From NCBI GenBank assembly GCA_030447745.1, contig JAUJOH010000010.1:35374-99373 (forward strand): a stretch of DNA of 64,000 bases, read 5' to 3'. The notes under the pieces are model-generated. The model did not search any database. It saw only the letters and a list, made by a program, of their open reading frames with translations, and was not told the DNA's origin. The stretch's first letter is position 1. Every line of letters begins with the position of its first letter. The position numbers were made by a program, and so were the translations under genes. This document shows positions 38,542-54,426 of this stretch, piece after piece. The DNA is from Chloroflexota bacterium (GTDB taxonomy: Bacteria > Chloroflexota > Limnocylindria > Limnocylindrales > CSP1-4).

Positions 38542-40791
38542 CTACCCGAGGTCGCGCTGGACCGAAAGAACGTCCTTCAGCTGTTCGATCCGGCCCATCA
38601 CCCGCGCCAGCTGGGCGACCGAGGCGACCTGCAGCGTCGCGGTCACGATCGCCGTGTGGTCCGGGTTCACGTTGACCGATGCGGCGAGGATGTTGACCCT
38701 GTTCTCCGCCACGACCTGGGTGATGTCGTTCAGCAAGCCGGTCCGGTCGTAGGCCTCGACCCGGATGGCGATCGGGTACGTCGCGGCCGGAGCCGCCTCC
38801 CACTCGACGTCGATGAGCCGCGACACCTCGCGCTCGTTGATGACCGTCGGGCAGGAGTGCAGGTGGACGGTGACGCCCTTGCCGCGCGTGATGAAGCCGA
38901 CGATCGGGTCGCCCGGGATGGGGTGGCAGCACTTGGCGAACCGGACGAGCAGGTCACCGACGCCCTTGACGCGCACGCCGCCGGTCCGGGCCGGGACGCT
39001 GGACGGGGCGACCGTCGGCAGCGCCGTCTGCCCGTCGTCGACGACGCCCAGCCGCATGACGACCTGCTGGGCGGAGATGGCGCCGTAGCCGATGGCAGCG
39101 AAGAAGTCGTCCGCCTGCTCGAAGTTGTAGAGCCGCGCGGTCTCCGCGATCCGGTCGTGCCCGACCGCACCGACGTTCGTCCGTGCCAGCCGACGGAGCT
39201 CCCGCTCGAGCGCCTCGCGGCCGTGGACGATGTTCTCGTCACGGTCCTTGCGCTTGAACCACTGGCGGATCTTTTCGCGGGCGTGCGAGGTGCGGACGAC
39301 GTTCATCCAGTCGCGCGACGGGCCGTGCTCGCCCTTGGTCGTCACGATCTCGACGATGTCGCCGTTCTTGAGCCGGTAGTCGAGCGGAACGAGCCGGTTG
39401 TTGACCTTGGCGCCGATCGTCCGGTGCCCGACGTCCGTGTGGATCCGGTACGCGAAGTCGAGCGGGGTGGCGCCGGCCGGCAGGTCCTTGATGTCGCCCT
39501 TCGGCGTGAACACGAAGACCTGGTCCTGGAAGATGTCGAGCTTGATGCCCTCGACGAACTCGGTGGCGTCGGAGACGTCCCGCTGCCAGTCCATCAGCTG
39601 GCGGAGCCAGGCCAGCTTCGCGTCGTACTCGCGGTCAGACTTCGAGCCTTCCTTGTACCGCCAGTGAGCCGCGATGCCGACCTCGGACACCTGGTGCATC
39701 TGGTGCGTCCGGATCTGGATCTCGAGCGGCTTGCCGTCGAGCGCGATCACGGCCGTGTGGAGCGACTGGTAGAGGTTGTTCTTGGGGACCGCGATGTAGT
39801 CGTCGAACTGACCCGGGATCGGCCGCCACAGGGCGTGGACGATGCCGAGCGCGGCGTAGCAGTCCCGGACGTCCTCGACCAGGATCCGGATCGCATAGAC
39901 GTCGTAGATCTCGCCGAACTCGGCGGACTTGCGCTGCATCTTCTTGAAGATGCTGTAGATGTGCTTCGGCCGGCCCTGCAGGTCCGCCTGGATGCCGGCC
40001 TGCTTGAGCCGGGGCTCGAGCTCCGCGATCGCGCGCTCGATGTAGCCCTCGCGGCCATGACGCCGCGTGTCGAGCAGGCGGGCCAGCTCGCGGAAGCGCT
40101 GCGGCTCCAGGATCTTGAAGGCGAGGTCCTCGAGCTCCCACTTCATCTGCCAGATCCCGAGCCGCTCGGCAAGCGGCGCGTAGATCTCCATCGTCTGGCG
40201 CGCGATCCGGAGCTGCTTCTCCGACGGCAGGGCGTACAGCGTCCGCATGTTGTGGAGGCGGTCGGCCAGCTTGATGAGGACGACCCGGATGTCCTCGGCC
40301 ATGGCCAGCAGCATCTTCCGGATGTTCTCCGCCTGCTGCTGCTCGTGGCTGTGCGTGCTGAACTTCGAGAGCTTGGTGACGCCGTCGACGAGCCGCGCGA
40401 CCTCGCCGCCGAACCGCTCCTCGACGTCGCTCAGGCTGTACTCGGTGTCCTCGGGAACGTCGTGCAGAAGCGCGGCGAGGACGGCCACCGGGTCAATCCC
40501 GAGGTCCGCGAGGATCTGCGCCGAGGCGATCGGGTGGGTGACGTACGGCTCCCCGGAGGACCGCTTCTGCGAGGCGTGGGCATCGACGGCGAGGTCGAAC
40601 GCACGGCCGACCGGCTCGAGATCGACCTGCGGGTAGTGACTCGCGAGCGTCGCGAGCAGGTGCTGGCGAAGGGCCGCGATGTCGACGGCCTCGCCCGGCC
40701 GCAGGGGGGCTGGGCGCGCCGGCGTCAGCGAGCGCCGAGGCCCGCGACGGGGCGGGGCGGTCTCGGCGGGCTTGGTGCGCGGTGTGGCCAT
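38542..40791 (-). CDS. rel: Bifunctional (p)ppGpp synthetase/hydrolase Rel
   Basis: 749 aa from ATG 40791: HD hydrolase domain (HDVPEDT), synthetase domain (RELARLLDT...YQSLHT), TGS, and ACT-like C-terminus. Confidence 0.9.
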   Translation of the reverse strand: MATPRTKPAETAPPRRGPRRSLTPARPAPLRPGEAVDIAALRQHLLATLASHYPQVDLEPVGRAFDLAVDAHASQKRSSGEPYVTHPIASAQILADLGIDPVAVLAALLHDVPEDTEYSLSDVEERFGGEVARLVDGVTKLSKFSTHSHEQQQAENIRKMLLAMAEDIRVVLIKLADRLHNMRTLYALPSEKQLRIARQTMEIYAPLAERLGIWQMKWELEDLAFKILEPQRFRELARLLDTRRHGREGYIERAIAELEPRLKQAGIQADLQGRPKHIYSIFKKMQRKSAEFGEIYDVYAIRILVEDVRDCYAALGIVHALWRPIPGQFDDYIAVPKNNLYQSLHTAVIALDGKPLEIQIRTHQMHQVSEVGIAAHWRYKEGSKSDREYDAKLAWLRQLMDWQRDVSDATEFVEGIKLDIFQDQVFVFTPKGDIKDLPAGATPLDFAYRIHTDVGHRTIGAKVNNRLVPLDYRLKNGDIVEIVTTKGEHGPSRDWMNVVRTSHAREKIRQWFKRKDRDENIVHGREALERELRRLARTNVGAVGHDRIAETARLYNFEQADDFFAAIGYGAISAQQVVMRLGVVDDGQTALPTVAPSSVPARTGGVRVKGVGDLLVRFAKCCHPIPGDPIVGFITRGKGVTVHLHSCPTVINEREVSRLIDVEWEAAPAATYPIAIRVEAYDRTGLLNDITQVVAENRVNILAASVNVNPDHTAIVTATLQVASVAQLARVMGRIEQLKDVLSVQRDLG

Positions 40792-40900
40792 CGTGCTCGG
40801 GAGGATAGCAGCGCCCTTGGCCCTCGCCCGCGGGGGCGTCGGCGGGCCTGGCTGGGACGCGACGCTCCGCGGGCCGGGTTGGGAGGCCGCGGCGCCGCTG

Positions 40901-41093
40901 TTGGACCGCTGCCGCGGGCGTGTGGGCCGGCCATCCCGGGGTCGGGCCCCGTGGCGGCCGGCGAACCCAACGGGCGTGTGGGCCGGCCATCCTGGCCCGG
41001 ATCGGGCCAGCGTGGCGTGGACCGCCGGCGCCGTCCGTCCAAGGGTCTCACCGGCTCGCCGGTGGTCGGTTGGACCGCTGGCGAACCCACGGG
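40901..41093. repeat. Mosaic short direct repeats (11-22 bp units, ~56-bp period) in the rel upstream region
   Basis: cgggcgtgtgggccggccatcc at 40915-40936 and 40971-40992; ttggaccgctg at 40901 and 41070; gcgaacccaacggg / gcgaacccacggg at 40961 and 41081. Confidence 0.6.
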
Positions 41094-41244
41094 CCGTCAG
41101 GACTTGAACTGCTGCGGGTGGATCGGGCACGACAACCCAGATGGCCTCACCGGCTCGTACTCCGTGAATGAGCAACTACCACGACACGTACATCAGCGAG
41201 GGGCGGAGGCAACTCGGGGTCTAGGTTTCGAGATCCGGATCCAC

Positions 41245-42049: not shown

Positions 42050-42754
42050 CTACGGCGCCATCCCGGCCAGGTCGATCTCGCCGGTCAGGACCAGCGCGTC
42101 GTCGACCACCGTCGCGGAGGTGAACCGCAGCGGATCGGCGGGGACCAGCCCGACGCGTGGGCTGCCCGGCACGTTGAGCGCCATCGAAAGCGCGCCGTCC
42201 GGCTCCACGACGATGCGGCCCTCGACCCGGACGAGGAAGAGGTTGAACACGAGACGATCCGGCGCCTGGAGCGAGGCGGACCCGCCGGTGATCCCGGTCT
42301 GCGCCTCCAGCCCGGCGAGCGCCGCCCGCTCGACCTCCGCGGCGGGGATGCGGATCGTTGCTTCGACCGCGTCCGGCGGTCCGACGAGATCCACTCGCTC
42401 GGCCTCGATCGAGGAGCCGCCGGCCGTCCGCAGCGTCACGCCGTCGAGCCGGCCCTCGAGGCCGGCGACCGTTCGCGACTCGAGCTCACCGTCGAGCAGC
42501 ACGAGCTCGACCCGGCGCGCCTGCAGCTGGCCGAACGACACGTCCTCGGAGTCGATCTCGAGGCGGTCTGCGTGCCCGCCGATCAGCTCCCACGGCGGGT
42601 CGGACGCCACGCGGACGGTCGTTCCGGTGCCGCGAAGGCCTGCCGTGGCGAGCGATCCCTCGACCAGCCTGCCCGCGATGCCGGGCCCACCCAGCAACGC
42701 CGCGACGGCAACCAGCAGCGCGACGACACCCGTCAGCGAGACGATGCTGCACAT
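42050..42754 (-). CDS. Hypothetical membrane-anchored protein (N-terminal TM; possibly DUF2993/LmeA-like)
   Basis: MCSIVSLTGVVALLVAVAALLGG, then a 200-aa soluble domain with no recognised catalytic motif. Confidence 0.45.
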   Translation of the reverse strand: MCSIVSLTGVVALLVAVAALLGGPGIAGRLVEGSLATAGLRGTGTTVRVASDPPWELIGGHADRLEIDSEDVSFGQLQARRVELVLLDGELESRTVAGLEGRLDGVTLRTAGGSSIEAERVDLVGPPDAVEATIRIPAAEVERAALAGLEAQTGITGGSASLQAPDRLVFNLFLVRVEGRIVVEPDGALSMALNVPGSPRVGLVPADPLRFTSATVVDDALVLTGEIDLAGMAP

Positions 42755-42757: not shown

Positions 42758-44425
42758 TCAGCGTCCTGCGGCCGGCTCGCCGGACGCGTAACCGAGCGAG
42801 GCGAGCGCGTCGAGGGCGACCCCGCGCTCGTCGTACGGCACCGGACCGGCCGGTCCGATGATCGATCGCTCGTGACCCTTTCCCGCGAGCAGCACCACGT
42901 CGCCCGGTCGCGCGCGCTCGATCGCGGCCGCGACGGCCGCCGGTCGATCAGGGACGAGCAGCAGATCATGGCCGCGGCGCTTGCCGGCCGACTCCGCGCC
43001 ACGGGCGATCTCGTCGAGGATCCCCTCGCGATCCTCGCCCCGCGGGTCCTCGTCCGTGGCGACGACGAGCCGGCACCGCTGACCCGCGATGCGGCCCATC
43101 ATCGACCGCTTGCCGGTGTCTCGTTCTCCCGCCGACCCGAAGACCGCGATGAGCTCCCCGCCGCGCGCGGCGGCGAGTGGCGCGAGCAGCCCGAGGACCT
43201 TCTCCAGCGCCGCCGGGCTGTGCGCGTAGTCGACGACCACGCCGAACGGCTGGCCGGCGTCTACCCGTTCCATCCGACCGGGCACGCCGGTCAGCCCGTC
43301 CAGCCCGGCCCGCACGGCGGCCGCGTCGAGCCCCCACGCGTCACCGAGTGCCACGACGGCGAGCGCGTTGTGCACGTTGAAGCGCCCCGCCAGCTGGAGC
43401 CCCAGGCGAGCCTCGCCGGATGGCGCGGCGAGGGTGACCCGGAGGCGGCGCGCGTCCTCCTCGACCCGGGTCGCCCGGACGTCGGCTGCGGGGTCCGTGC
43501 CGTAGGTGATCACGCGCGCCCGCGCTTCCTGGGCGACGCCGACGAACAGGCCGGCGCTCGGGTCATCGGCGTTGACGACGGCGACTTTCGGCAAGGGACC
43601 ACCCGGCAGCGCTTTCTGTGGGTTGAGCGGACCGGCGGCGAGCCGCTCGAAGAGCGAGAGCTTGGCCCTACGGTACGCCTCCCACGTGCCGTGGAACTCG
43701 AGATGCTCGTGGGTCACGTTGGTCAGGACGGCGGCGTCGTAGGCGATCGCCCCCACGCGCTCGAGCGCAAGGCCATGCGACGTCGTCTCCACGACCGCGG
43801 CGTCGTCCCCCGAGGCCCGCATCGCCTGAAGCGCGGCCTGGAGCGCCGGCGCCTCCGGCGTCGTGGCGTGCTCGGCGTTCGCCTCGCCGATCCCTCCGAT
43901 CCTCGTCTCGACGGTCCCCACGAGCCCGACCGACAGCCCGGCCGCCTCGAGGCCCGCCACCCCGAGGAACGACGTGGGGGAGTTGCCGTCCGGCCCGGGG
44001 AGTCCCGCGACCGCGAGCTCCCGGCGGGGAGCGCGGTCCCACCGGGCGGCGGCGGTCGCGAGGGCGGCCCGCGTGCCGTCGACGACGAGCTGCGGCAGGG
44101 GCGTGCCCGGGACCGCCCGCTCGACGAGCGTCGCGGCGGCGCCCGCCGCGGCGGCCATGGCCACGAAGTCGTGCCCGTCGACGTGCGCGCCGGGAACGGC
44201 GACGAACAGGCCGCGCGGGCGGACGTGGCGCGAGTCGTGGCTGACACCGGCGACCTCGATGCCGGCGAGGGCCGCGGGACCGATCGCCCGGCCGTCGGCG
44301 CGGGCTCCGCGGAGCCGGCCCTCGGCGGCGAGGCGGTCGATCAGCCCGGCGAGCGGGCGCGGTCCTGCCGGTTCGGCGGCGGCCAGGCGTTCGGCGATCG
44401 TCGTCGCCGGCCGGTCCAGCGTCAC
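42758..44425 (-). CDS. murE: Mur ligase family protein, MurE-like (UDP-MurNAc-tripeptide synthetase-like) with degenerate Walker A motif
   Basis: GVSHDSRHVRPRGLFVAVPGAHVDGHDF; DYAHSPAALEKVL; FGSAGERDTGKRSMMG; TDEDPRGEDRE; LLAGKGHE. At the P-loop position it reads GLPGPDGNSPTSF instead of GxTGTNGKTTT. Not in a dcw cluster. Confidence 0.7.
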   Translation of the reverse strand: MTLDRPATTIAERLAAAEPAGPRPLAGLIDRLAAEGRLRGARADGRAIGPAALAGIEVAGVSHDSRHVRPRGLFVAVPGAHVDGHDFVAMAAAAGAAATLVERAVPGTPLPQLVVDGTRAALATAAARWDRAPRRELAVAGLPGPDGNSPTSFLGVAGLEAAGLSVGLVGTVETRIGGIGEANAEHATTPEAPALQAALQAMRASGDDAAVVETTSHGLALERVGAIAYDAAVLTNVTHEHLEFHGTWEAYRRAKLSLFERLAAGPLNPQKALPGGPLPKVAVVNADDPSAGLFVGVAQEARARVITYGTDPAADVRATRVEEDARRLRVTLAAPSGEARLGLQLAGRFNVHNALAVVALGDAWGLDAAAVRAGLDGLTGVPGRMERVDAGQPFGVVVDYAHSPAALEKVLGLLAPLAAARGGELIAVFGSAGERDTGKRSMMGRIAGQRCRLVVATDEDPRGEDREGILDEIARGAESAGKRRGHDLLLVPDRPAAVAAAIERARPGDVVLLAGKGHERSIIGPAGPVPYDERGVALDALASLGYASGEPAAGR

Positions 44426-44464
44426 TGGCGCCGCCCTGCCACTCCCATTCGCACCGGCACGCGC

Positions 44465-45553
44465 TCAGTCGCCGTCGCGCCGAACCCCGCGGATCTCCTC
44501 GAGGCGGTTCCGGACGCGCAGGGCCGACTCGAAGGCGAGGCAGCCGAGCGGGTCCAGGACGAGGTCCCAGGACCCGACGTACTCGACCAGCCGGCCGCCC
44601 CAGCCCTCCTTGAAGGCGGCGACCGCCGGCGTGGGCAGCCCCCACAGGTCGTAGCGCCGGTACCCCTGCTCCTGTGCCCGCCTGATGGCGTGCCACTTGA
44701 TCAGGTAGTTCGCGCGACGCTTCGCGCCGGCGTCGGTCATCCCACCGTAGAGGTCGTTCGTGGTCGGGCCCCAGCCGATCAGGAAGATCGTGGCGAGCGT
44801 CTCGCCCGCGGACGTCTCCGCAAAGAGCAGGTCGGCGGCCCCGGACGGCGAGTACGCGGCCCACAGGTTGCGGTAGGTCTCCTCGGTCCGGTACGGGATC
44901 CCGGCCCGGATCATCGACTGCACGTGGACGGCGTGGAACTCCGACAGCCGCTCGGCCCCCGCAGGCACGACCGTCGCGCCGTCCCGCCCGGCCTTCGTGA
45001 TCGACTGGCGCCACTTGCGGTGGATGCCCGACCAGACCTCCTCCTCGGGACGGTCGATGTCGAGGACGCGGGTCACGCGCGGGTTCACCTCGGGCGCCCG
45101 GCGCCATCCGGCCCGACGCAGCGCCCGGGCGAGCGAGCCGTCCGGGTCCTCCAGCTCCGGGTCGATCCGGACGTGCGCGACGCGCATCTCCGCGGCCGCC
45201 TCGCGGACCGCCTCCGTGAACGCGCCGATGGCATCGTCGTCGAGCGGTCCGGTCGAGACGGGCCCGCGTGCGGCGTAGCCGAAGCCCCTGGGGAGTGGTC
45301 GCGGACGGCGGACGAGGATCTGCGCACCGATCGGCCCGCGTGGCCCGTCGGCGACGACCCGATGGGCCGTCCATCCGTTCGCCCGCTTGACGGTCGCCCA
45401 CGGCGACGCCTGGAGGTACGAGGAGGCACGCGCCCCGGTGACGAACGCGTCCCAGGCGTCCGGGTCCTGCCGGAGGGTCGCGGCGGCGACGGCGCGGCCG
45501 GTCATCCGCGCCCCCTCCCCCCGGAGCTCGGGCGCGGCGCTCGCGGCGGTCAT
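44465..45553 (-). CDS. FemAB-family aminoacyl-tRNA-dependent peptidyltransferase (FemX-like), paralog 1
   Basis: ASPWATVKRANGW...LYGGMTDAGAKRRANYLIKWHAIRRAQEQGYRRYDLWG. ATG at 45553 overlaps the paralog-2 stop (ATGA). Confidence 0.7.
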   Translation of the reverse strand: MTAASAAPELRGEGARMTGRAVAAATLRQDPDAWDAFVTGARASSYLQASPWATVKRANGWTAHRVVADGPRGPIGAQILVRRPRPLPRGFGYAARGPVSTGPLDDDAIGAFTEAVREAAAEMRVAHVRIDPELEDPDGSLARALRRAGWRRAPEVNPRVTRVLDIDRPEEEVWSGIHRKWRQSITKAGRDGATVVPAGAERLSEFHAVHVQSMIRAGIPYRTEETYRNLWAAYSPSGAADLLFAETSAGETLATIFLIGWGPTTNDLYGGMTDAGAKRRANYLIKWHAIRRAQEQGYRRYDLWGLPTPAVAAFKEGWGGRLVEYVGSWDLVLDPLGCLAFESALRVRNRLEEIRGVRRDGD

Positions 45554-46608
45554 CTGCGCAGGCCCGCGATCAGCCGGCGGACGCGGCGTGCGGCCAGCCC
45601 CGCCCGGTAGACCGCCGGACGGAGGACCGTCTCGTGGGCGCCGGCGGACGCCACCCACTCGGCCCCGAACGAGGCCTTGTGCTCGTAGAGGCCGTAGCCC
45701 GGGTCGCCTGGTTCGGGCCGGCGCCGCGCCCCCGCGGTGTCGACGCCGCCGAGGTCGATCGACGGGTAGCCGGCCTCGACCGCCTCCCGGATGGCATGCC
45801 AGCGGAGCAGGTGCATCGTTCCGGGCAGCTCGCGGCGCATATCAGCCCGGTCGCCCGAAAAGGCAGTCGCCAGGTGGCCTCCCTGGCAGTACGCGAGCAG
45901 CCCCCCGAGCACGCATCCCTGATGGACCGCGAGCCAGAGGCGAGCCTGCCGCGCGTCGAGGACCCGGCGCCACCAGGCCAGGAAGCCCCGGTCCGATGCG
46001 AAGTTGAACCGCCGTCGCTCGGCCGCCGCGTCGACGAGCGCGGCGAACGCCTCCAGGTGCACGCCGCGCGCATCGTCGACGACCTGCGTGCCGGACCGCT
46101 CGGCGGCGCGGATCCGCTGGCGCGCCTGCTTGGAGACGCGCGCGCGGACGGCCTCCAGGTCGTGTCCCGGTTCCCAGCTCAGGATCATCCGGTGGCGCGA
46201 TGGCTGCAGCTCCTCGGTCGGACGGTAGCCGGCGGCGGCAAGAGCCCGATCGTACGCTGGATCCTCGTCGAGCTCCGGGTCCACGGCGAGGATCGTGCCT
46301 CCCTCGCCACGGACCCAATCGGCGAGACCGGCCGCCCGCGCGGCGACCGGTTCCACGCCGTCACCGCCGGAGATCGGCCCGCGGGGCGCGTACGCGACGA
46401 AGCCCGGCAACGGCGGCTGCGGGTGCGTGAGGACGAGCGCCGAGGCCCCGTCGGCGAATCGGAGGAAGTGGGACCGCCAGCCCTGCGCCGCGCGGTGCGC
46501 GGCCCACGCGGTTCCCTGCAGAACGTGACCGCCCGGCGGATCGACGGTCCGGGCGTCCCAGCCGTCGGGCGGCGCCGATGCCGCCCCGACCACCGCGATC
46601 GGCATCAC
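45550..46608 (-). CDS. FemAB-family peptidyltransferase, paralog 2
   Basis: LQGTAWAAHRAAQGW...HLLRWHAIREAVEAGYPSIDLGG. Start is GTG 46608 (GTGA overlap with the paralog-3 stop) or ATG 46605. Confidence 0.7.
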   Translation of the reverse strand: MMPIAVVGAASAPPDGWDARTVDPPGGHVLQGTAWAAHRAAQGWRSHFLRFADGASALVLTHPQPPLPGFVAYAPRGPISGGDGVEPVAARAAGLADWVRGEGGTILAVDPELDEDPAYDRALAAAGYRPTEELQPSRHRMILSWEPGHDLEAVRARVSKQARQRIRAAERSGTQVVDDARGVHLEAFAALVDAAAERRRFNFASDRGFLAWWRRVLDARQARLWLAVHQGCVLGGLLAYCQGGHLATAFSGDRADMRRELPGTMHLLRWHAIREAVEAGYPSIDLGGVDTAGARRRPEPGDPGYGLYEHKASFGAEWVASAGAHETVLRPAVYRAGLAARRVRRLIAGLRR

Positions 46609-47675
46609 GTCGCATCGCCGTCGGTCGTGGCGTCGCCCGTGCCGCCGGGTGCTGCTCCGCCACGGACGCCGTGCCGGAGCCTGGCGGCGCTGACCACGGC
46701 CCGCCGGGCGACGTTCGTGACCGCGTTGCCGAGCCGGTCGACGACCAGGACCCGCCCCCCGACGTACTGCACCTCGCGCCCGCCGAAGCCGGACTTGAAC
46801 CGCTCGATCCCGGCGTGCGCGACGCCCCACATGTCGTAGACCTCAAAGCCGCGCTCGCGCGACGACCGGATCGCCTCCCACTTCAGGAGGTAGTTCGCGC
46901 GCGACCGCGCCCCGGCCTCGGACATGCCGCCGTACGGCTCGATCACGCGCCGGCCACAGGTCAGCAGGAGCAACGCCGCCGCGGGATGCCCGTTCGGCAG
47001 GCGGGCCAGGAGGAGGCGAGCGCGACCGCCCTCGTCGTACGCCCGGAACACGTCCTCGTACGCCTGCCGTGAGCGGTGGACGAACCCCGCTCGGCGTGCC
47101 GTCTCGACGTACAGCCGGTAGAAGTCGTCGATCCCCGCGGCGCCCGCGTCCTCGACCGTCACGCCGGTGCGGCGCGCCTTGGACACGTACTGGCGCCACT
47201 TCGAGCGGAGGTCGCCCCACAGCGCGCCCTCCTCGCGGCGGAGGTCGACGAGCCTGGTCCGATCGGCCTGGATCGAGGCGGTCGGTCGCCAGCCGGCACC
47301 ATCCAGGTGGCCGACCAGCGGGTCGCCCGGCTCGACCTCCGGGTCGACCGTCACCTGCACCAGCCGATGGCGGCGGGCTGCCGCTCGCAGCGCGTCCGTG
47401 AGCGCCGCCACGCCAGCGCCATCGAACTGACCTCCGACGGGGCCGCGCGGTGCATAGCCCACCCGCCACGGGGTTGGCCGGAGGTCCCTGACAAGCAGCT
47501 GCAGCCCGATCGGGCCCGGACCGGTGTCGACGACGAGCCGCAGCGACCGCCAGCCGTTCGCCTGCTTGACCCGGGCCCACGCCGTGAGCTGGGTGTACGA
47601 GCCGGTCGGCGCGGCTTCGACGAATGCGTCCCAGGCGTTGGGATCGGCCCGGAGCGTGTCGGCCGCGGCCGTCAC
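46605..47675 (-). CDS. FemAB-family peptidyltransferase, paralog 3
   Basis: TQLTAWARVKQANGW...PYGGMSEAGARSRANYLLKWEAIRSSRERGFEVYDMWG. GTG at 47675 forms GTGA with the murJ stop. Confidence 0.7.
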   Translation of the reverse strand: MTAAADTLRADPNAWDAFVEAAPTGSYTQLTAWARVKQANGWRSLRLVVDTGPGPIGLQLLVRDLRPTPWRVGYAPRGPVGGQFDGAGVAALTDALRAAARRHRLVQVTVDPEVEPGDPLVGHLDGAGWRPTASIQADRTRLVDLRREEGALWGDLRSKWRQYVSKARRTGVTVEDAGAAGIDDFYRLYVETARRAGFVHRSRQAYEDVFRAYDEGGRARLLLARLPNGHPAAALLLLTCGRRVIEPYGGMSEAGARSRANYLLKWEAIRSSRERGFEVYDMWGVAHAGIERFKSGFGGREVQYVGGRVLVVDRLGNAVTNVARRAVVSAARLRHGVRGGAAPGGTGDATTDGDAT

Positions 47676-49237
47676 GCGGGACGCGGGCGGCGGACCAGCC
47701 CGGTCGCCACGGCGACCAGCGCGGGAAGCTCCGGCGCCCGGAGGAGGAGACTCATCGCGGCGTATCCTACCCCGCCGACCGCGGCCGCCGACACGGCGCG
47801 GACGACGGCCTCGACGAAGCCCGGGCCGTCGATCCCGCGCTGGTCGAGACCCGCCAGGACGGCCAACGCCGCCGCGCCGGCGACCAGCGAACCGACCCCC
47901 GCCCGGACGAACGTCGAGCCGACCGGAGCCAGCCGGAGCGCGGCGAAGCGGCGCTTGAGCAGGACGAGGAGGATGCCGGCCTCGATCCACGCCCCGGCCG
48001 CGATCGCGAACGCGAGCCCGGCCAGCCCGAACGGCCCGACCGCGACCGCGCCCACGACCACATTGACCGCGACGGTGAAGATGGCGGCCGCGACCGGGGT
48101 CATGGTGTCCTGGTCGGCGTAGAAGGCGCGGGCCAGGACGCCGATCAGCGAGTGGGCGGCGAGCCCGATCAGGAAGACGGCCAGCGTCGTCGCCGTCACC
48201 TCGATCGCCGCCGCCGTGAACGCGCCGCGCCCGAACAGCATGGCGACGACCTCCTCGCGCAGCACGATCCCGAGCACGGCGACGGGCAGCATCACGAAGA
48301 GCAGGAGCCGGAGGGCGCGGCCCACCAGGGCGACGTAGTCGGCGATCGCGCCGGCGGCCAGCTCGTGCGACAGCGCCGGCAGGATCACGATCCCGAGCGG
48401 CACGCCGATCACGCCGAGCGGGATCTGGAGCAGCGCCATCGCGATGTTGAAGGCGGACACGGACCCCGCGGCAAGGGCCGACGCGAATGCGGTCATGGCC
48501 AGGAACGTGACCTGCGTGGCCCCCAGCCCGAGCGCGCGCGGCGCCATCAGGACGAGGACGCGACGCGACAGCGGCTCGTCGAGGTCGATCCTCGGCTGGT
48601 ACCGGAACCCGACGCCGAACATCGGGCGGACCTGGACGAGCAGGTGACCGAGCGCCCCGACGACCACCCCGACGGCGAGGCCCGTGACGCCGAGCGCCGG
48701 GGCGAGGAAGATGGCGCCGCCGAGGATCCCGAGGTTGTAGGCGATCGGCGCGAGGGCCGAGGCGGCGAAGCGACCGCGAGCGTTCAGCACGCTCGTGGCG
48801 ACGGCGCCGAGCGCGAGCAGGATCGGGCTGAGCAGCATGATGCGGGTCAGCTCGACCGTCCGGGCCAGCTCCGCCGGGCCGAACCCCGGCGCGATCGCCG
48901 GCACGAGCAGTGGCGCGAGCACGAACAGGACCACGGCCAGCACGAGCAGCGCGGCCAGCATCAGGTTCATGACCGTCGAGACCACGCGCCACGCCCGCGC
49001 GTCGTCGTTCGTCGCAAGCAGGCCGGAGACGATCGGGATCACGGCGGACCCGAGGGCACCGGCGGCGACGAGCTGGAAGACGAGGTCCGGGATCCGGAAG
49101 GCCGCGTAGAAGGTATCGAGCTCGCGGCCGATGTTGAACGTCGTCGCGATGACGACGACGCGGACGTATCCGAGGGCCCGCGAGGCGAGGAATGCCGCCG
49201 TCACGATGAGGCCCGCCTGGGCGAGCCGGCGGTTCAT
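47672..49237 (-). CDS. murJ: Lipid II flippase MurJ (MviN family), copy 1
   Basis: MNRRLAQAGLIVTAAFLASRALGYVRVVVIATTFN... with 14 predicted TM helices of the MOP/MVF fold. Confidence 0.8.
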   Translation of the reverse strand: MNRRLAQAGLIVTAAFLASRALGYVRVVVIATTFNIGRELDTFYAAFRIPDLVFQLVAAGALGSAVIPIVSGLLATNDDARAWRVVSTVMNLMLAALLVLAVVLFVLAPLLVPAIAPGFGPAELARTVELTRIMLLSPILLALGAVATSVLNARGRFAASALAPIAYNLGILGGAIFLAPALGVTGLAVGVVVGALGHLLVQVRPMFGVGFRYQPRIDLDEPLSRRVLVLMAPRALGLGATQVTFLAMTAFASALAAGSVSAFNIAMALLQIPLGVIGVPLGIVILPALSHELAAGAIADYVALVGRALRLLLFVMLPVAVLGIVLREEVVAMLFGRGAFTAAAIEVTATTLAVFLIGLAAHSLIGVLARAFYADQDTMTPVAAAIFTVAVNVVVGAVAVGPFGLAGLAFAIAAGAWIEAGILLVLLKRRFAALRLAPVGSTFVRAGVGSLVAGAAALAVLAGLDQRGIDGPGFVEAVVRAVSAAAVGGVGYAAMSLLLRAPELPALVAVATGLVRRPRPA

Positions 49238-49338
49238 CGTCACGGCGCCGCGAGACCGGTGGCGGCGGTCCGGCCGTGCCGGCGGCGGCTCTTCTCGAGG
49301 ACGGTCCGGCGCGGCCGGCTCGTGGCTGGTACGCGAGC

Positions 49339-50997
49339 TCACGACCGCCCCCGACGGTGCAGCAGGTCGGTCATGAGCGCGATCATCGAGGCGAGCTCCG
49401 GGATCCGCAAGACGACGCTCAGCACCAGGTAGACGGCCCCGAACGCGACCGTCACCAGGACCGACTGCGCGACGAGCGCGAGCGGGCCGGGATCCGGTCC
49501 GATGAGGCCGTCGATCGCATAGAGCGCGAGCAGCCCCAGCGCACCGGCGACGACCGTCGCCAGGGCGGCCTCGAGGCCGACCCGCACGACGTCGCCGACG
49601 CCGAGCGACGGCAGCCTCCGCGTGAGCAGCACGATCAGCACGGCCGCCTCGATCCACGCCGCGACGGCGATCCCGGTCGCGATGCCGGCGAGCCCGAGCG
49701 GACCGACGAGCAGCGTGGCAAGGACGGTGTTGACGACGACCGCGAGGACGGCCGCGCCGACCGGAGTTCGGGTGTCCTGCCGGGCGTAGAACGCCCTCGC
49801 CAGCAGCGCGATCAGCGCGTGCGCCGCGAGGCCGCCCAGGAAGAACAGCAGCGCGTTCGCCGTCAGGTCGATGTAGGTGCTCCCGAGACCCGGGAACAGG
49901 ACCGTGACGACCTGCCGGCGGAGGATCGCGAGCAGCCCGGCGATCGGCAGCATCACGTACAGCAGCAGCCGCAGGCCGCCCGTGACGAGCCCTACGTACT
50001 CGCGCTCGCGGCCGGCCGCCGCGACCCGCGCGAGCGACGGGAACACGACCACCCCGAGCGGAACGCCGATGACGCCGACCGGGATCTGGAGCAGCGTGAA
50101 CGCGGCGTTGTAGGCGGTGACGGCGCCGGTGCCGAGCATCGTCGCCAGCGAGGTGACGACGACGAACGTGATCTGGCTGGCTCCCAGCCCGACCGCACGT
50201 GGCGCCATCAGTCGGAGCGTCTGACGCGCCCGATCGTCAGCAAGGGCCGCCACCGGTTCGTACCGGAAGCCGATGCGCCGCAGCCCGGGCAGCTGGACGA
50301 GGAGATGCGCGAGCGATCCCACGACCACGCCGATCGCCAGCCCCTGCACGCCGAGGCTCGGGGCGAGGAGGACGGCGCCCGCGATGATCGCGACGTTGTA
50401 GACGATCGGCGCCATGGCCGCCGCGGCGAACCGGCCGGAGGCGTTCAACACGCTCGTCGCCACGGCTCCGAGCGCCAGGAACACGGGGCTCAGGAGCATG
50501 ATCCGCGTCAGCTCGACGGTGCGCGCCGTGTAGAGCGCGTCGAAGCCGGGCGTGATCGCCGGCACGATCGCCGGGGCCGCGACGGAGAGCCCCACCGCCA
50601 GCACGGCGAGGGCGATCAGCATCACGTTCGTGACCGTCGATACGACTCGCCACGCCCGCTCGTTGGCGTCGGCCGCCAGCAGGGTGGCCACGATCGGGAT
50701 CAGGGCCGACCCCAGCGCGCCGGCGGCGACCAGCTGGAAGACGAGGTCCGGCAGCCGGAAGGCGGCGAAGAAGGCGTCGAGATCCGCCGATGCGCCGAAC
50801 GTGTTGAGGACCACCACCGTGCGCACCCAGCCGAGCGCCCGGGAGGCGAGAAACGCCCCCGAGACCACGATTCCCGCGATCGCCAGTCTCCGGCCACGGC
50901 CGGCCGGCGGCGCCGAAGGACCGGGAGTGTCCGCTGCCCGCCCCGGGTGCGCGACCGCCGTCGGAGGGTCGATCGGGCCGGTGCGCCCGCTCGTCAA
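49339..50997 (-). CDS. murJ: Lipid II flippase MurJ (MviN family), copy 2
   Basis: RLAIAGIVVSGAFLASRALGWVRTVVVLNTFG...; paralogous to copy 1. Start uncertain: TTG 50997 (TTGA overlap with the xerC stop) or GTG 50955. Confidence 0.7.
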   Translation of the reverse strand: MTSGRTGPIDPPTAVAHPGRAADTPGPSAPPAGRGRRLAIAGIVVSGAFLASRALGWVRTVVVLNTFGASADLDAFFAAFRLPDLVFQLVAAGALGSALIPIVATLLAADANERAWRVVSTVTNVMLIALAVLAVGLSVAAPAIVPAITPGFDALYTARTVELTRIMLLSPVFLALGAVATSVLNASGRFAAAAMAPIVYNVAIIAGAVLLAPSLGVQGLAIGVVVGSLAHLLVQLPGLRRIGFRYEPVAALADDRARQTLRLMAPRAVGLGASQITFVVVTSLATMLGTGAVTAYNAAFTLLQIPVGVIGVPLGVVVFPSLARVAAAGREREYVGLVTGGLRLLLYVMLPIAGLLAILRRQVVTVLFPGLGSTYIDLTANALLFFLGGLAAHALIALLARAFYARQDTRTPVGAAVLAVVVNTVLATLLVGPLGLAGIATGIAVAAWIEAAVLIVLLTRRLPSLGVGDVVRVGLEAALATVVAGALGLLALYAIDGLIGPDPGPLALVAQSVLVTVAFGAVYLVLSVVLRIPELASMIALMTDLLHRRGRS

Positions 50998-51989
50998 GCC
51001 GGGTCGTCCGTCGTGGCGCGCGGGTGCGCCTGACGGTATGCCGCTCGGAGTCGCGTGGGCGACACGTGCGTGTAGACCTGCGTCGTGGCGAGGCTCTCGT
51101 GGCCCAGCAGCTCCTGTACCACGCGCAGGTCGGCACCCCCGTCGAGGAGGTGGGTCGCGAAGGAGTGGCGAAGGGTGTGCGGCGAGACGCCCTCCGGGAG
51201 GCCGGCGGCGCGACACAGCCGGTCGAGACGGTAACGCAGCCCGCGCACGCCGAGAGGCTCACCGCGGTGGTTCAGGAAGACTTCCGTCGGCGCGGTCGCC
51301 GCGGAGGCCCGCCGCCCGACGAGGACCGGTCTGCCGTCCGCGAGGTAGCGCTCGAGTGCGTCGACCGCGGGCCGCCCCAGGAGCCCGACTCGTTCTTTCC
51401 GCCCCTTCCCCAGCACCCGGATCTCGCCCCGCCGCGGGTCGAGTGACGCGAGCTCGGCCGCCGCCAGCTCGCTGATCCGGAGACCCGCCGCGTAGGCCGT
51501 CTCGACGATTGCCCGGTCACGGACGGCGAGCGCCGCCAGGAGCTGCCCACGGGCCAGGTCACGATCGCCCGCAGCGTCGAGGCGCCCGGCGCTTTTCCGA
51601 ACGACGCCGCCCTCGATCGCGTCGAGCAGCCGCTCGACCTGCTCGACCTCGAGGACACGCGGCAGCCGGCGCTGCAGACGCGGCGTCGCGATCGCACCCC
51701 AGGGGTCGCCCGGGGCGAGCCCCTCGCGAGCTGCAAAGCGATGGAACGAGCGGATGGCGGCGAGGCGCTGGGCGACGGAGCTCCTGGCGACGGACCCCAC
51801 CAGGGACGCGAGGTACGCGCGCAGGTCCGCCCGCGGGGGCTCGCGCCAGTCCACGCCCCGCTCGCCGCGCCAGGCCAGGTACCGTCCGACGGCGCCCGCG
51901 TACGCCCGCGGCGTGTGTGGGGACACGTCACGAGCCGCGAGCGCCGCCAGGAACCGGTCGAGGGCGGCGACTCCCGCCGGCACCGTCAC
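50994..51989 (-). CDS. xerC: Tyrosine recombinase XerC
   Basis: ...HTLRHSFATHLLDGGADLRVVQELLGHESLATTQVYTHV. Second Xer paralog in the window (xerD at 6287). GTG start near 51989. Confidence 0.8.
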   Translation of the reverse strand: MTVPAGVAALDRFLAALAARDVSPHTPRAYAGAVGRYLAWRGERGVDWREPPRADLRAYLASLVGSVARSSVAQRLAAIRSFHRFAAREGLAPGDPWGAIATPRLQRRLPRVLEVEQVERLLDAIEGGVVRKSAGRLDAAGDRDLARGQLLAALAVRDRAIVETAYAAGLRISELAAAELASLDPRRGEIRVLGKGRKERVGLLGRPAVDALERYLADGRPVLVGRRASAATAPTEVFLNHRGEPLGVRGLRYRLDRLCRAAGLPEGVSPHTLRHSFATHLLDGGADLRVVQELLGHESLATTQVYTHVSPTRLRAAYRQAHPRATTDDPA

Positions 51990-52002
51990 CCGGTCGCCAC
52001 GG

Positions 52003-54426
52003 TCACGCGTCGGACGCGGCCTCGGTGGCGTTGCGCCCGGTGGCAGCCTTCGCCCGACCACCGCTCCGTGCTCGTCCGGCACCCGCCGGAGCCCGACCGT
52101 TCCGGCGTCCGCCGCCACGCGCGGGACGCGCGAGCGCCTCGGGGTTCGGCGGCCCGCCCGTCAGTCGTCGGCCGGCGAGATCGCCGTCTGGCAGCACCAC
52201 GTCCGCGCCGCATTTCAGGCACAGCGCGCCGTCGCCCTTGCGTGCCACTGGACCGTCGTCCGAGTCATGGACGGCGCCCACCGGCTCCGAGTTGGTGGTG
52301 TAGTCGCACCTCGGGTAGTTCGAGCAACCCCAGAAGACGTTCCCGGTCCGCCGGGCGCGGCGCGGCACGAGGTGGCCGTCGCCGTTCTTCGGGCAGGTCA
52401 CCTCGAAGGGCAGCGGTTCGGGTGGCGGCGGGCCCTCCTTCCGGATGAAGTCGCACTCCGGATAACGTGAGCAGCCGACGAACGGGCCGAAACGGCCGCG
52501 CCTGGCGACGAGCGTCCCCTCGCCGCACCTCGGGCACGTCTCACCCTCGCCCTCCTGGGGCGGCGGCTCCTCGCCCGGCAGCGGCCGCGTCTCCTTGTGA
52601 TCCGGATACGTGGAGCAGGCGAGGAATCGGCCGTTGCGCCCAAGGCGGATGACCATCGAATGGCCCTCCGAGCAGACCTCGTCCGTCTCCTCCGTGGTGA
52701 AGTCCTTCCGCCGCAGCTCACGCCGCTTCTCGTCGACCCGGTCCCGCAGCGGGCCGTAGAAGCCGCGCAGCAGCGGCACCCATGCCCGCTCGCCGCGGGC
52801 GACCTCGTCGAGCTCGTCCTCCATCCGCGCCGTGAACGCCAGGTCGACGTAGTCGCCGAAGTGCTCCACGAGCAGGTCCGTGACGATCTCCCCGATCAGC
52901 TCCGGCCGGAGCCGGCGGTCCTCGACCCGCACGTACCCGCGGTCGAGGATCGTGGAGATCGTGGCCGCGTACGTCGACGGGCGGCCGATCCCGTGCTCCT
53001 CGAGCGCCTTGATCAGCGCCGCCTCCGTGAAGCGCGGCGGTGGCTCCGTGAAGTGCTGCGTTGGCTCGACCTCGCGGACCTCGGTCTCGTCACCCGCGGC
53101 AAGCTCCGGCAGGCGGCGCTCCTGCTCGTCTTCGGCACCGTCGTCGCGGCCCTCCGTGTAGACAGCCGAGAACCCGTCGAACAGCGTGCGAGTCGCGCTC
53201 GCGCGGAGATCGTAGGGCGCCGCGTCGAGCTCGACGATCGTCGTCTCCATCTCCTTCGACGCCATCTGCGAGGCGACGGCCCGCTGCCAGATCAGGCGGT
53301 AGAGCCGCAGCTCGTCTGGCTTGAGGTGGCCGGCCAGCGAGTCCGGGTCCCGCCGGAAGCTCGTCGGCCGGATCGACTCGTGCGCCTCCTGGGCCCCCTT
53401 CGCCTTGGTCCTGTAGACGCGGCCCTTGGGCATCGTGTAGCGGTCACCGAAACGCTGGCCGATGACCTCCCGGGCATCACGCATCGCGACGCCCGCGATG
53501 GCCGTGGAGTCCGTCCGCATGTAGGTGATCAGGCCGACGTGGCCGTCCGGCGTGTCGACGCCCTCGTACAGCCGCTGCGCGACGGACATCGTCCGCTTCG
53601 GGCTGTAACCGAGCTTCCGGCTCGCCTCCTGCTGGAGCGTCGAGGTCGTGAACGGCGGCGCGGGGTTGCGCTTGAGCGGCCGTGTCCCGACGCTGCGCAC
53701 GACGGGTCGCCGCTCCCGCAGCGCGGCGGCGTGGCGCTCGGCCGTCGCCGCGTCGCCGACGTCGATCGCTTGACCGTCGATCCGGACAAGATCCGCGCTG
53801 AACGTCTCGCCGGTCTGTGTCGCGAGCGTCGCCTCGAGCGTCCAGTACTCGCGGGCCACGAAGGCATTGATTGCCCGCTCGCGCTCGACGACGAGCCGCA
53901 CCGCGACGGACTGGACGCGGCCCGCGGACAGGCCGCCCCGGACCTTCCGGGACAGCAGCGGGCTGAGCGTGTAACCGACGAGCCGGTCGACGATCCGACG
54001 GGTCTGCTGGGCGTCGACGAGGTTCGTGTCGATGCCCCGCGGATGGTCGAAGGCGTCGCGGATCGCGCCCTCCGTGATCTCGCTGAAGATGACCCGGCGC
54101 GTCTTCTCGGCGGGCACGCCCGCGGCCTCCGCGACGTGCCACGCGATCGCCTCGCCCTCGCGGTCGAGGTCCGTGGCGAGATAGACGGTGTCTGCCCGCT
54201 TCGCCTCGCGCGCGATCGTGTCGACCTGCTTCCGGCGGTCGTCGCTGACCACGTACTCCGGCTCGAAATCGCGGTCGACGTCCACGCCGAACTTGCCCTT
54301 GCCGGGATTGTCCGGCAGGTCACGGACGTGGCCGTACGAGGCCACGACGCGGTAGTCGCCGCCGAGATAGCGTTCGATCGTCCGCGCCTTGGCAGGCGAT
54401 TCCACGATCACGAGGTGCCTGGGCAT
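52003..54426 (-). CDS. topA: DNA topoisomerase I
   Basis: MPRHLVIVESPAKARTIERYLG (Toprim), catalytic Tyr region, C-terminal C4 zinc ribbons and a basic tail. Confidence 0.9.
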   Translation of the reverse strand: MPRHLVIVESPAKARTIERYLGGDYRVVASYGHVRDLPDNPGKGKFGVDVDRDFEPEYVVSDDRRKQVDTIAREAKRADTVYLATDLDREGEAIAWHVAEAAGVPAEKTRRVIFSEITEGAIRDAFDHPRGIDTNLVDAQQTRRIVDRLVGYTLSPLLSRKVRGGLSAGRVQSVAVRLVVERERAINAFVAREYWTLEATLATQTGETFSADLVRIDGQAIDVGDAATAERHAAALRERRPVVRSVGTRPLKRNPAPPFTTSTLQQEASRKLGYSPKRTMSVAQRLYEGVDTPDGHVGLITYMRTDSTAIAGVAMRDAREVIGQRFGDRYTMPKGRVYRTKAKGAQEAHESIRPTSFRRDPDSLAGHLKPDELRLYRLIWQRAVASQMASKEMETTIVELDAAPYDLRASATRTLFDGFSAVYTEGRDDGAEDEQERRLPELAAGDETEVREVEPTQHFTEPPPRFTEAALIKALEEHGIGRPSTYAATISTILDRGYVRVEDRRLRPELIGEIVTDLLVEHFGDYVDLAFTARMEDELDEVARGERAWVPLLRGFYGPLRDRVDEKRRELRRKDFTTEETDEVCSEGHSMVIRLGRNGRFLACSTYPDHKETRPLPGEEPPPQEGEGETCPRCGEGTLVARRGRFGPFVGCSRYPECDFIRKEGPPPPEPLPFEVTCPKNGDGHLVPRRARRTGNVFWGCSNYPRCDYTTNSEPVGAVHDSDDGPVARKGDGALCLKCGADVVLPDGDLAGRRLTGGPPNPEALARPARGGGRRNGRAPAGAGRARSGGRAKAATGRNATEAASDA

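Follow-up and report, generated by a model that had tools for sequence, protein, structure and literature searches.

The pentaglycine bridge of Staphylococcus aureus is built by MurE, FemX, FemA, FemB, and MurJ, working in that logical order: a MurE that does not use mDAP, then Fem transferases that act successively on the side-chain amine in an aminoacyl-tRNA-dependent manner, then MurJ, which flips the product. The genes for these proteins are dispersed, with femAB forming an operon and femX, murE, and murJ lying elsewhere. The staphylococcal FemA/FemB subtype is about 420 amino acids in length and carries a long coiled-coil insertion. Shorter Fem enzymes (about 335 to 400 amino acids), each adding one or two residues, are represented by FemX of Weissella viridescens, MurMN of S. 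pneumoniae, and BppA1/A2 of E. faecalis, and in systems of the MurMN/BppA type the number of enzymes tracks the length of the bridge. The branch operons encoding MurMN and BppA1/A2 contain transferases only, without murE or murJ.

Thermotoga maritima illustrates a different departure from mDAP. Its MurE (4bub) adds L- or D-lysine, and in it the asparagine of the DNPR motif is replaced by aspartate while the arginine is kept. No Fem bridge system is known to adjoin the murE of that organism.

In the canonical dcw cluster (mraZ ... murE-murF-mraY-murD-ftsW-murG-murC ... ftsZ), murE is one gene of many, but in Chloroflexi the cluster is reported to be split into sub-clusters (PMC8871954). Ktedonobacter racemifer, a cultured member of this phylum, has Orn, Ala, Glu, Ser, and Gly in its wall, and Ser is the N-terminal residue of an interpeptide bridge (PMC3236041). 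That chemistry fits a non-mDAP MurE acting with two or three Fem proteins. Limnocylindria, the subject of what follows, form a different class of the phylum.

A murJ-fem-murE block between xerC and relA

The stretch of DNA analysed here (64 kb, hereafter the window) contains the same enzyme families as those of S. aureus and the same logic, in one translationally coupled block rather than dispersed. Reading along the minus strand from 50997 to 42758, one encounters murJ, murJ, fem, fem, fem, and murE, back-to-back (Table 1). A sequence-only reading had named these six consecutive genes and their stop/start overlaps. The names are borne out by Pfam and NCBIfam, the models for PF02388, Mur ligase, and MurJ all scoring above their curated cutoffs, and the overlaps can be read directly from the sequence: GTGA (murJ1/murJ2), GTGA (murJ2/fem1), GTGATG (fem1/fem2), and ATGA (fem2/fem3). 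GC3 frame analysis favours exactly the six annotated frames, and database proteins P0001 (Fem1), P0130 (MurE), and P0250 (the 234-aa ORF) are exact matches with the same starts.

Table 1. Features of the locus and its surroundings (window coordinates)
Feature	Coordinates	Strand	Length	Description
topA	52003..54465	minus		context; DNA topoisomerase I with zinc ribbons; TIGR01051 806 bits; position kept in relatives
xerC	50994..52118	minus		context; XerC-type tyrosine recombinase, housekeeping, coupled to murJ1; likelier start 51989 (Pfam, NCBIfam)
murJ1	49339..50997	minus	552 aa	lipid II flippase homologue; TTG start; PF03023; TIGR01695 301.4 bits
murJ2	47672..49342	minus	556 aa	second, divergent MurJ paralogue; TIGR01695 319.8 bits
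fem1	46605..47675	minus	356 aa	FemX-like aminoacyl-tRNA-dependent transferase; PF02388 119 bits; exact match P0001
fem2	45550..46608	minus	352 aa	most divergent Fem paralogue; PF02388 66 bits
fem3	44465..45553	minus	362 aa	FemX-like transferase; PF02388 97 bits
murE	42758..44425	minus	555 aa	orthologue of UDP-MurNAc-L-Ala-D-Glu:diamino-acid ligase; GTG start; TIGR01085
aberrant MurE patch	43961..44044	minus	aa 128-155	spans the Walker-A P-loop; GLPGPDGNSPT in place of G[IV]TGTDGKTTT
TDEDPR motif	43040..43057	minus	aa 457-462	in MurE, where mDAP ligases have their recognition motif DNPR
seventh ORF	42050..42754	minus	234 aa	N-terminal membrane helix and beta-rich domain; no family match; starts 3 nt past the murE stop
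relA/spoT	38542..41175	minus		context; followed by hisS, then aspS (Pfam, NCBIfam)

The coupling does not stop at the ends of the block. Upstream, the start of murJ1 overlaps the stop of xerC by 4 nt (TTGA), and downstream a 3-nt spacer separates murE from the seventh ORF, so that the six genes belong to a longer translationally coupled array. The one junction without tight contact is that between fem3 and murE, a 39-nt spacer with no overlap. On a larger scale, the block sits within the co-directional array comM-dprA-topA-xerC / six genes / 234-aa ORF-relA-hisS-aspS, and the co-directional core genes of the window comprise cmk, scpAB, nadK, dxs, xseA, efp, mltG, alaS, mnmA, iscS, typA, aspS, hisS, relA, topA, dprA, and comM. 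Neither a promoter nor a strong terminator could be found, and operon boundaries can for that reason only be surmised. The six genes are probably co-transcribed with topA-xerC, in which case their expression would be constitutive.

A scan of GTDB found at least 551 relatives, the best 80 of which come from 80 different MAGs of the Limnocylindria type. From those 80, together with loci from assemblies, 49 are fully flanked, and in every one of the 49, xerC lies upstream, relA lies downstream, and murE occupies the slot between them. The called-gene tables of four relatives (L002, L003, L005, and L087) give the order topA-xerC-murJ-fem-...-murE-...-relA-hisS. What varies is the number of genes in between: two fem genes in 37 loci, one in 7, and three in 5, and one murJ in 43 loci and none in 6. 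Not one of the 49 has two murJ genes. These are found in the short contig of the closest relative (L086, 83% nucleotide identity), whose layout, murJ-murJ-fem-fem-fem-murE, is identical to that of the window, and among the loci examined only these two combine a pair of murJ genes with three fem genes. With three, this genome and its sister lineage stand at the top of the clade's range of one to three fem genes, and the extra murJ and the third fem are lineage-specific additions.

Fem, MurJ, and MurE families and the substrate motif

All three Fem proteins exceed the PF02388 gathering score of 24 bits. The best match of both Fem1 and Fem3 is S. aureus FemX (6snr; E = 1.5e-20 and 5e-19), and both also match the Weissella FemX (1ne9) at about 1e-14 (1.5e-14 for Fem1). 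Fem1 has zero mismatches at conserved columns. Fem2 is the weakest of the three in this respect: the solved structures that it matches best are 9wqw, a peptide synthase dependent on aminoacyl-tRNA (E = 1.9e-8), and the FemX of S. aureus (E = 2.8e-7). The paralogues are 27 to 44% identical to one another, Fem1 and Fem3 forming the 44% pair, and each has an orthologue 69 to 73% identical in L003, in the same order (73% for Fem3). Orthologues of Fem2 are 64 to 73% identical in L002 and L003, and most relatives have a gene of the Fem2 type. To judge from such comparisons the paralogues are old. At 352 to 362 amino acids, they are nearer in length, the one property compared, to the Weissella enzyme (335 amino acids) than to those of S. 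aureus (420 to 426).

It was suggested from the sequence that the three tandem Fem transferases add a multi-residue interpeptide bridge to lipid II step by step. That several such enzymes extend a branch or bridge from the residue added by MurE is reasonable, and by family membership and adjacency to murE and murJ the transfer would be onto the position-3 side chain of the peptidoglycan precursor; which amino acids MurE and the Fem enzymes use can be guessed at from motif and analogy. With one to three fem genes per genome, the clade seems to have varied the length of its bridge in the course of evolution. Might these proteins serve something other than peptidoglycan: a peptide natural product, the aminoacylation of lipids, or an exopolysaccharide system of the PEP-CTERM type? 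The best structural match of Fem2, a peptide synthase, hints at such a role, as do weak matches to the PEP-CTERM FemAB model and LPG_synthase_C. The PEP-CTERM scores, however, are 58 to 65 bits against a cutoff of 260, Fem1 and Fem3 best match lipid II:glycine glycyltransferase and the UDP-MurNAc-pentapeptide FemX, and relatives keep the fem genes in fixed adjacency to murJ and murE. It would be surprising in the extreme if the Fem proteins proved to act off peptidoglycan.

Both MurJ copies pass the TIGR01695 cutoff of 235.55 bits and match solved MurJ structures at E values of 1e-57 to 1e-60. MurJ1 shares 84% identity with the lone MurJ of L087 and 88% with the first copy of L086. MurJ2 is 55 to 56% identical to MurJ1; with the second copy of L086 it shares 91% identity, and with the one MurJ of L003, 64%. 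A second, diverged murJ has been retained or acquired in this genome and its sister lineage. The required cavity residues of E. coli MurJ are R18, R24, R52, R270, and D39. Both copies, like those of relatives, have the equivalents of R18, R24, and D39, and those of R52 and R270 are Phe/Tyr and Thr/Ala in all seven aligned MurJ sequences of the clade, a point that counts against the role proposed below.

MurE has all three Mur-ligase domains (PF01225, PF08245, and PF02875), scores 418.6 bits against the NCBIfam TIGR01085 cutoff of 257.3, which places it in the family, and matches solved MurE structures at E values of 1e-44 to 1e-80. An alignment of 118 homologues has 205 columns with conservation of 97% or more, the mark of purifying selection. 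It is at the substrate motif that the protein and its clade part from the mDAP ligases. DNPR binds the distal carboxylate of mDAP (PMC3829189) and is found in the aligned mDAP ligases, but it is absent from MurE of the window and of the clade, which have EDPR. Of 120 close homologues, 117 have the longer TDEDPR, as do 151 of 167 loci, and EDPR occurs in 48 of the 150 best cluster representatives. Since the protein also falls below the cutoffs of the NCBIfam mDAP equivalog models, it is not classed as an mDAP ligase.

The resemblance is instead to the lysine ligase of T. maritima, which has DDPRGED where the window has EDPRGED, although overall similarity is moderate (E = 3e-66) and the first residue of the motif is Glu here. 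The shared Asp and Arg suggest a diamino acid other than mDAP, and MurE of the clade is predicted to add L-Lys or L-Orn at position 3. The substrate of the window's MurE could be L-Orn, unlike the lysine of T. maritima. S. aureus arrives at its own non-mDAP, Lys-type ligase with yet another motif, DNPA (PMC3829189).

The P-loop of the deposited MurE

One short patch of MurE is an anomaly. In the P-loop, K148 is changed to N and three threonines to proline, so the sequence departs from the Walker-A pattern G-x-x-G-K-T/S. Elsewhere one finds xTGTxGKT: in all aligned solved MurE structures, in 103 of 103 matched close homologues, at 153 loci, and in the full-length representatives checked. The aberrant state is seen in none of more than 400 relatives; it is missing from 119 close homologues, from the 153 loci where the P-loop can be read, and from every full-length representative checked, and a search of JGI metagenomes with the peptide pattern drew a blank. 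Over the patch, relatives are 93 to 100% identical to each other but share 57% identity with the window. If the change is real, the deposited copy, missing its Walker-A lysine, cannot be a working ligase. Its orthology to MurE is clear; its activity, as deposited, looks doubtful.

How might such a patch arise? One account is that murE has become a catalytically dead homologue, through recent loss or as a non-catalytic pseudo-enzyme, the tripeptide being made by another enzyme. The reading frame is intact over 555 codons, whereas alaS of the same window has two frameshifts; identity at third codon positions is normal inside the patch; conserved sites in the other window genes checked carry no surplus of changes; NCBI holds the identical protein (P0130); and the same sub-lineage has also altered the content of the locus, by a second murJ. 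These facts sit comfortably with a real change. It is harder to reconcile with one that the state is unique among so many homologues and metagenomes, and that the closest relative, whose contig stops 7 residues short of the loop, agrees with the consensus at G71, W128, and S134. Divergence outside the patch is of the ordinary kind, with 24 window-unique changes there compared with totals of 14 to 33 in three individual relatives. The spectrum of mutation is different as well. The patch contains 14 window-unique nucleotide changes, 10 of them to G (plus strand) and 6 of them T>G, while elsewhere in murE only 1 of 80 window-unique changes is T>G (for changes to G, patch versus the rest of murE, Fisher p = 0.006).

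A skewed spectrum confined to one patch points to a single event that was not evolutionary, and I read the patch as a probable local artefact of sequence. Poor sequence in general does not explain it, since the other checked genes are normal at conserved sites, but the alaS frameshifts demonstrate that the assembly has errors. A local error of sequence or assembly is the probable cause, likelier than biology. That the catalytic loss is genuine I hold to be unlikely, and it is similarly improbable that a free-living Chloroflexota lineage retains an otherwise intact, operon-embedded MurE without canonical ATP binding.

Proposed role

I propose that the six genes are a housekeeping module for position 3 of the peptidoglycan precursor, a piece of dcw delocalised to the interval between topA-xerC and relA-hisS, and I think this likely to be correct. 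MurE, given its substrate UDP-MurNAc-L-Ala-D-Glu by MurC and MurD (encoded elsewhere), would ligate to it a diamino acid lacking a second carboxylate, L-Lys or L-Orn. MurF, MraY, and MurG, also encoded elsewhere, would complete lipid II. The three FemX-like transferases would then use aminoacyl-tRNA to extend the side-chain amine one residue at a time, by three at most, so making an interpeptide bridge of the A3/A4 type, and MurJ would flip the branched lipid II across the membrane. Compared with canonical dcw, murE is common to both, but here it is detached from murF and mraY and joined to fem and murJ, which are not dcw genes.

The sequence-only reading had a different idea: a self-contained branch of precursor synthesis, possibly conditional or devoted to a modified wall or second polymer, standing beside a canonical dcw murE and murJ. 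Its premise that the window lacks dcw genes holds, in that mraZ/rsmH, ftsI, murF, mraY, murD, ftsW, murG, murC, and ftsQAZ are absent from the ORFs annotated across the window, and the same is true of dcw genes within 10 kb either side of the locus in L002, L003, L005, and L087. The lineage-specific murJ and fem are what one might expect of an accessory pathway, and an inactive P-loop, if real, would need another ligase. But a cluster that lacks murC, murD, murF, mraY, and murG cannot be self-contained, and a conditional role is at odds with the constant xerC-relA slot, with a base composition like that of its neighbours, and with coupling to housekeeping xerC and topA. A locus found throughout the clade, at one core position in all related genomes examined, bears the stamp of a housekeeping sub-cluster delocalised from dcw, and its MurE is a full-scoring and strongly conserved member of TIGR01085. 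Nor does the locus look like an accessory or horizontally acquired island, for which patchy distribution, atypical composition, and mobile-element borders would be expected: the slot is constant in 49 of 49 relatives, GC content is 0.746 at the locus and 0.719 over the window, which is uniform, and the adjacent recombinase is of a conserved chromosomal XerC type.

Copy number bears on the matter from both sides. By tblastn there are no further copies of Mur ligase, MurJ, or Fem in the window, a count that covers 64 kb of this genome, which leaves room for a second murE. The best 80 relatives have one locus per MAG, by a scan that would miss divergent paralogues. I infer that the copies in the slot are the sole murE and murJ, and I give the accessory branch very little credence.

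The six genes look like the ordinary gene set of a lineage of soil Chloroflexota, the Limnocylindria, shared throughout it, and not a separate or conditional pathway. If, against expectation, the P-loop is real, then this MurE would parallel, in a bacterium, the non-catalytic MurE-like protein of plants, its change coinciding with the arrival of a second MurJ, and an unrecognised route or partner would supply the third residue of the stem peptide.

Six genes within a longer coupled array

The window has a GC content of 72%, and its minus strand carries nearly all of its genes. GC3 frame analysis and profile searches, by which the genes of the cluster were called, bear out the sequence-only reading of six consecutive minus-strand genes and of their identities: both MurJ proteins, all three FemAB proteins and MurE, which has the three-domain architecture of its family, score above the profile cutoffs. 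With the starts chosen, Fem1, MurE and the 234-aa ORF directly after murE match database proteins exactly (P0001, P0130 and P0250, respectively). The overlaps that had been described hold from murJ1 through fem3, reading gene by gene GTGA, GTGA, GTGATG and ATGA; at the junction of fem3 and murE there is instead a gap of 39 nt. murJ1 begins at a TTG that shares bases with the stop of its upstream neighbor, xerC (TTGA), and the 234-aa ORF begins 3 nt past the stop of murE, so the six genes are one segment of a longer coupled array. A sigma-70 promoter scan gave 0 sites and terminator-like matches were weak, at chance level; these are uninformative on operon borders.

Features of the window (window coordinates)
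Feature	Positions	Strand	Profile or description
murJ1	49339-50997	minus	TIGR01695, 301 bits (cutoff 235.6)
murJ2	47672-49342	minus	TIGR01695, 320 bits (cutoff 235.6)
fem1	46605-47675	minus	PF02388, 119 bits (cutoff 24)
fem2	45550-46608	minus	PF02388, 66 bits (cutoff 24)
fem3	44465-45553	minus	PF02388, 97 bits (cutoff 24)
murE	42758-44425	minus	TIGR01085, 418.6 bits (cutoff 257.3)
murE patch, aa 128-155	43961-44044	minus	GLPGPDGNSPT vs invariant G[IV]TGTDGKTTT
Gap, 234-aa ORF to relA	41176-42049		874 nt
Doubtful 128-aa ORF in gap	41587-41973	plus	No Pfam match
alaS	23097-26034	minus	Split over three frames
alaS-mltG interval	19764-23094	minus	Two genes
Actin-fold gene	21835-23094	minus	FtsA/MreB/PilM-like
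Second gene of interval	19764-21482	minus	Weak Baseplate_J-like domain
Region of lower GC	58000-64000		GC 0.60-0.65
D-serine-dehydratase-like gene	61657-62994		Alanine racemase fold
IclR regulator	63062-63847

The surroundings of the cluster are a core-genome region. Its upstream neighbors are xerC, topA (with zinc ribbons), dprA and comM. On the downstream side, the 234-aa ORF is followed by relA/spoT, hisS, aspS, an EamA transporter gene, typA, an iscS-like gene, mnmA and alaS, and then by mltG, pepP, efp, xseA, dxs, nadK, a second xer gene, scpA, scpB and cmk. ORF annotation of the window turned up none of mraZ, rsmH, ftsI, murF, mraY, murD, ftsW, murG, murC, ddl and ftsQAZ; the cluster is not contiguous with dcw genes there, just as had been read from the sequence. 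Nor did tblastn find a further Mur ligase, MurJ or Fem within the window. The GC content of the cluster (0.746) is in line with that of neighboring genes, and the cluster has no island features. Rfam and tRNA scans over the window gave no match.

Three places in the window call for separate mention. The gap before relA holds no convincing gene, only weak terminator-like hairpins and the doubtful plus-strand ORF. The two genes between alaS and mltG are an unusual insertion in an otherwise conserved neighborhood. Where GC falls toward the end of the window, the kinds of gene are unlike those of the core array: DinB-family proteins, a SnoaL/DUF4440 protein, and the dehydratase-like protein and regulator of the table.

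The same slot in related genomes

A scan of GTDB, one genome per species, with the MurE alignment as query brought up at least 551 relatives, and the top 80 come from 80 different MAGs; names among the homologs include Candidatus Limnocylindrales and Chloroflexota. Loci with flanks of at least 6.5 kb on the upstream and 3.5 kb on the downstream side (n=49) were compared by tblastn of the window proteins. All 49 have xerC upstream and relA downstream. What lies between varies: fem is present twice in 37 loci, once in 7 and three times in 5, and murJ once in 43, not at all in 6 and never twice. Apparent double MurJ genes in other loci proved to be single genes split by frameshifts. After murE comes a homolog of the 234-aa ORF in 23 of the 49 loci and an M14 peptidase in 5.

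Called-gene tables of four related loci (L002, L003, L005 and L087) show the neighborhood recurring, with no dcw gene within 10 kb. L003 reads comM-dprA-...-topA-xerC-murJ-fem-fem-fem-murE-(M14 peptidase)-relA-hisS; L002 and L005 have their third fem after murE, and L087 has two fem genes and a homolog of the 234-aa ORF. The nearest relative found, L086, is a 7.8-kb JGI contig with 83% nucleotide identity to the window and exactly its layout, xerC-murJ-murJ-fem-fem-fem-murE. The three Fem paralogs are old: they are 27-44% identical among themselves, and L003 has, in the same order, a 69-73% identical ortholog for each of them.

The two murJ paralogs claimed for the cluster are indeed present. 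Since L086 has the identical murJ-murJ arrangement, the tandem pair is genuine and common to a sub-lineage. The window copies are 55-56% identical to each other and share 88% and 91% amino acid identity with those of L086; murJ1 is orthologous to the sole MurJ of L087 (84%), and murJ2 is closest to the MurJ of L003 (64%). R18, R24, R52, R270 and D39 of E. coli MurJ are cavity residues that this protein needs. In all seven clade MurJ proteins aligned (from L002, L003, L086, L087 and the window, both copies included), the equivalents of R18, R24 and D39 are conserved and those of R52 and R270 are missing. The two copies may be redundant, or they may prefer lipid II with different branches.

The cluster is most likely a sub-cluster of housekeeping genes rather than an accessory island, because it is universal in one core slot, is native in composition, is under strong purifying selection (205 columns of MurE at least 97% conserved among 118 homologs) and is translationally coupled to xerC. 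These same facts leave unsupported the proposal that it is a standalone, conditional or second-polymer cluster. Neither can it be the self-contained branch that was envisaged, since murC, murD, murF, mraY and murG lie outside it. In Chloroflexi, the dcw cluster is reported to be split into sub-clusters, with its genes delocalized (PMC8871954).

Two variants of the locus deserve notice. In L042, L061, L068, L070, L074 and L080 it is reduced to xerC-fem-murE, with one fem and no murJ; murJ must be elsewhere in these genomes, and the shortest bridge of the clade is predicted for them. In L003 (14942-16567) and L005 (15811-17487), and also in L008 and L015, a Peptidase_M14 (carboxypeptidase) gene replaces the 234-aa ORF after murE, and its product may be an enzyme that trims cell-wall peptides. 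The idea that the 234-aa ORF and the gap beside it are a decayed M14 peptidase was dropped, as tblastn found no similarity.

A disrupted P-loop in the murE of the window

The Walker-A loop of the window MurE reads GLPGPDGNSPTSFL (aa 141-154) and lacks the canonical motif. The degenerate loop is unique to the window among more than 400 relatives: xTGTxGKT occurs in every solved MurE aligned, in 103/103 matched close homologs, in 153/153 loci with a readable loop and in all checked full-length representatives. A second scan with MurE added 80 loci, every one with a canonical loop, although the closest is just 78% identical. Searching JGI metagenome contigs for the degenerate peptide pattern gave 0 matches. 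At G71, W128 and S134, L086 agrees with the family consensus, and its contig stops 7 codons short of the loop.

Is the loss real? If so, it would have to be very recent or lineage-specific, which I consider improbable. I favor, with fair confidence, a local artefact of the sequence or the assembly. Over aa 128-155, relatives share 93-100% identity among themselves and 57% with the window. Of the residue changes in MurE that only the window shows, 36 in all, 12 fall within those 28 residues; beyond them, divergence is ordinary. Of 14 window-unique nucleotide changes in the patch, 10 are to G (plus strand), six of these T>G, a change that makes up 1/80 of those in the rest of murE (changes to G, patch versus remainder, Fisher p = 0.006). 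The assembly is imperfect, since the essential alaS is broken over three frames, with one shift near 25425, at a G5 run, and another near 24570, which indicates assembly indel errors or a pseudogene.

Other origins of the patch fared poorly. Low substitution quality of the window as a whole was rejected: Fem1, Fem2, XerC, TopA, RelA, HisS, AspS and both MurJ proteins show no similar cluster of changes. Neither of the other two frames encodes the consensus, which disposes of a compensated frameshift, and there is no ectopic copy within the window from which the patch might have been copied. Inverted repeats near it are of a quality ordinary for 80% GC DNA. Were the loss real, the window MurE could not work as an ATP-dependent ligase, and there would have to be another enzyme. 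The deposited protein is labelled MurE despite its destroyed ATP loop, a caution for automated annotation.

Predicted wall chemistry

In alignments to solved MurE proteins, the substrate motif is DNPR in mDAP ligases, DDPRGED in the L/D-lysine ligase of Thermotoga maritima and EDPRGED in the window. TDEDPR recurs in 117/120 close homologs and 151/167 loci. EDPR is found in 48 of the best 150 50%-cluster representatives (DNPR in 58) and so marks a broad MurE subtype. The distal carboxylate of mDAP is the group that DNPR binds through its Asn and Arg, and Lys-type sites are more acidic (PMC3829189). The window MurE, having no DNPR, would thus not be an mDAP ligase, and the motif points to L-Lys or L-Orn at position 3 of the stem peptide. 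This fits the neighboring Fem transferases, which require a free side-chain amine. By analogy, it also fits cultured Chloroflexota such as Ktedonobacter, whose wall contains Orn, Ala, Glu, Ser and Gly in proportions of 0.7:1.8:1.0:0.8:1.9 and whose bridge has Ser at its N-terminus (PMC3236041).

I propose that MurE would add the diamino acid, that the Fem enzymes would then attach up to three residues, with aminoacyl-tRNAs as donors, and that MurJ would flip the branched lipid II. The Fem-built bridge suggested by the sequence-only reading is reasonable. Because the fem count varies from one to three, the model predicts differences in bridge length between species that track it.

The predicted function of the cluster is the Gram-positive-type pathway of non-mDAP MurE, Fem and MurJ. 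Its closest analogs include MurE/FemXAB/MurJ of S. aureus, FemX of Weissella (the window transferases are short, FemX-sized) and pneumococcal MurMN, with T. maritima MurE the analog for the substrate motif. Fem1 and Fem3 match the S. aureus lipid II:glycine glycyltransferase and Weissella FemX; Fem2 matches more distantly. What sets it apart is its packaging in the genome: the genes lie between xerC and relA as a single coupled block that is detached from the dcw cluster. In a full-text literature search, no paper turned up that describes a murJ-fem-murE operon or that deals with the wall chemistry of Limnocylindria. Even so, both the components and the proposed mechanism are familiar, and the arrangement is what this clade normally has; no new kind of pathway is revealed.

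A flippase, branch transferases and the position-3 ligase form a tidy sub-operon split from the dcw cluster, which is of use to annotators and to work on how dcw evolved. For Limnocylindria, an abundant, uncultured class of soil and freshwater, the cluster offers a concrete, testable prediction: a wall of monoderm type that carries L-Lys or L-Orn at position 3 and has a short bridge.
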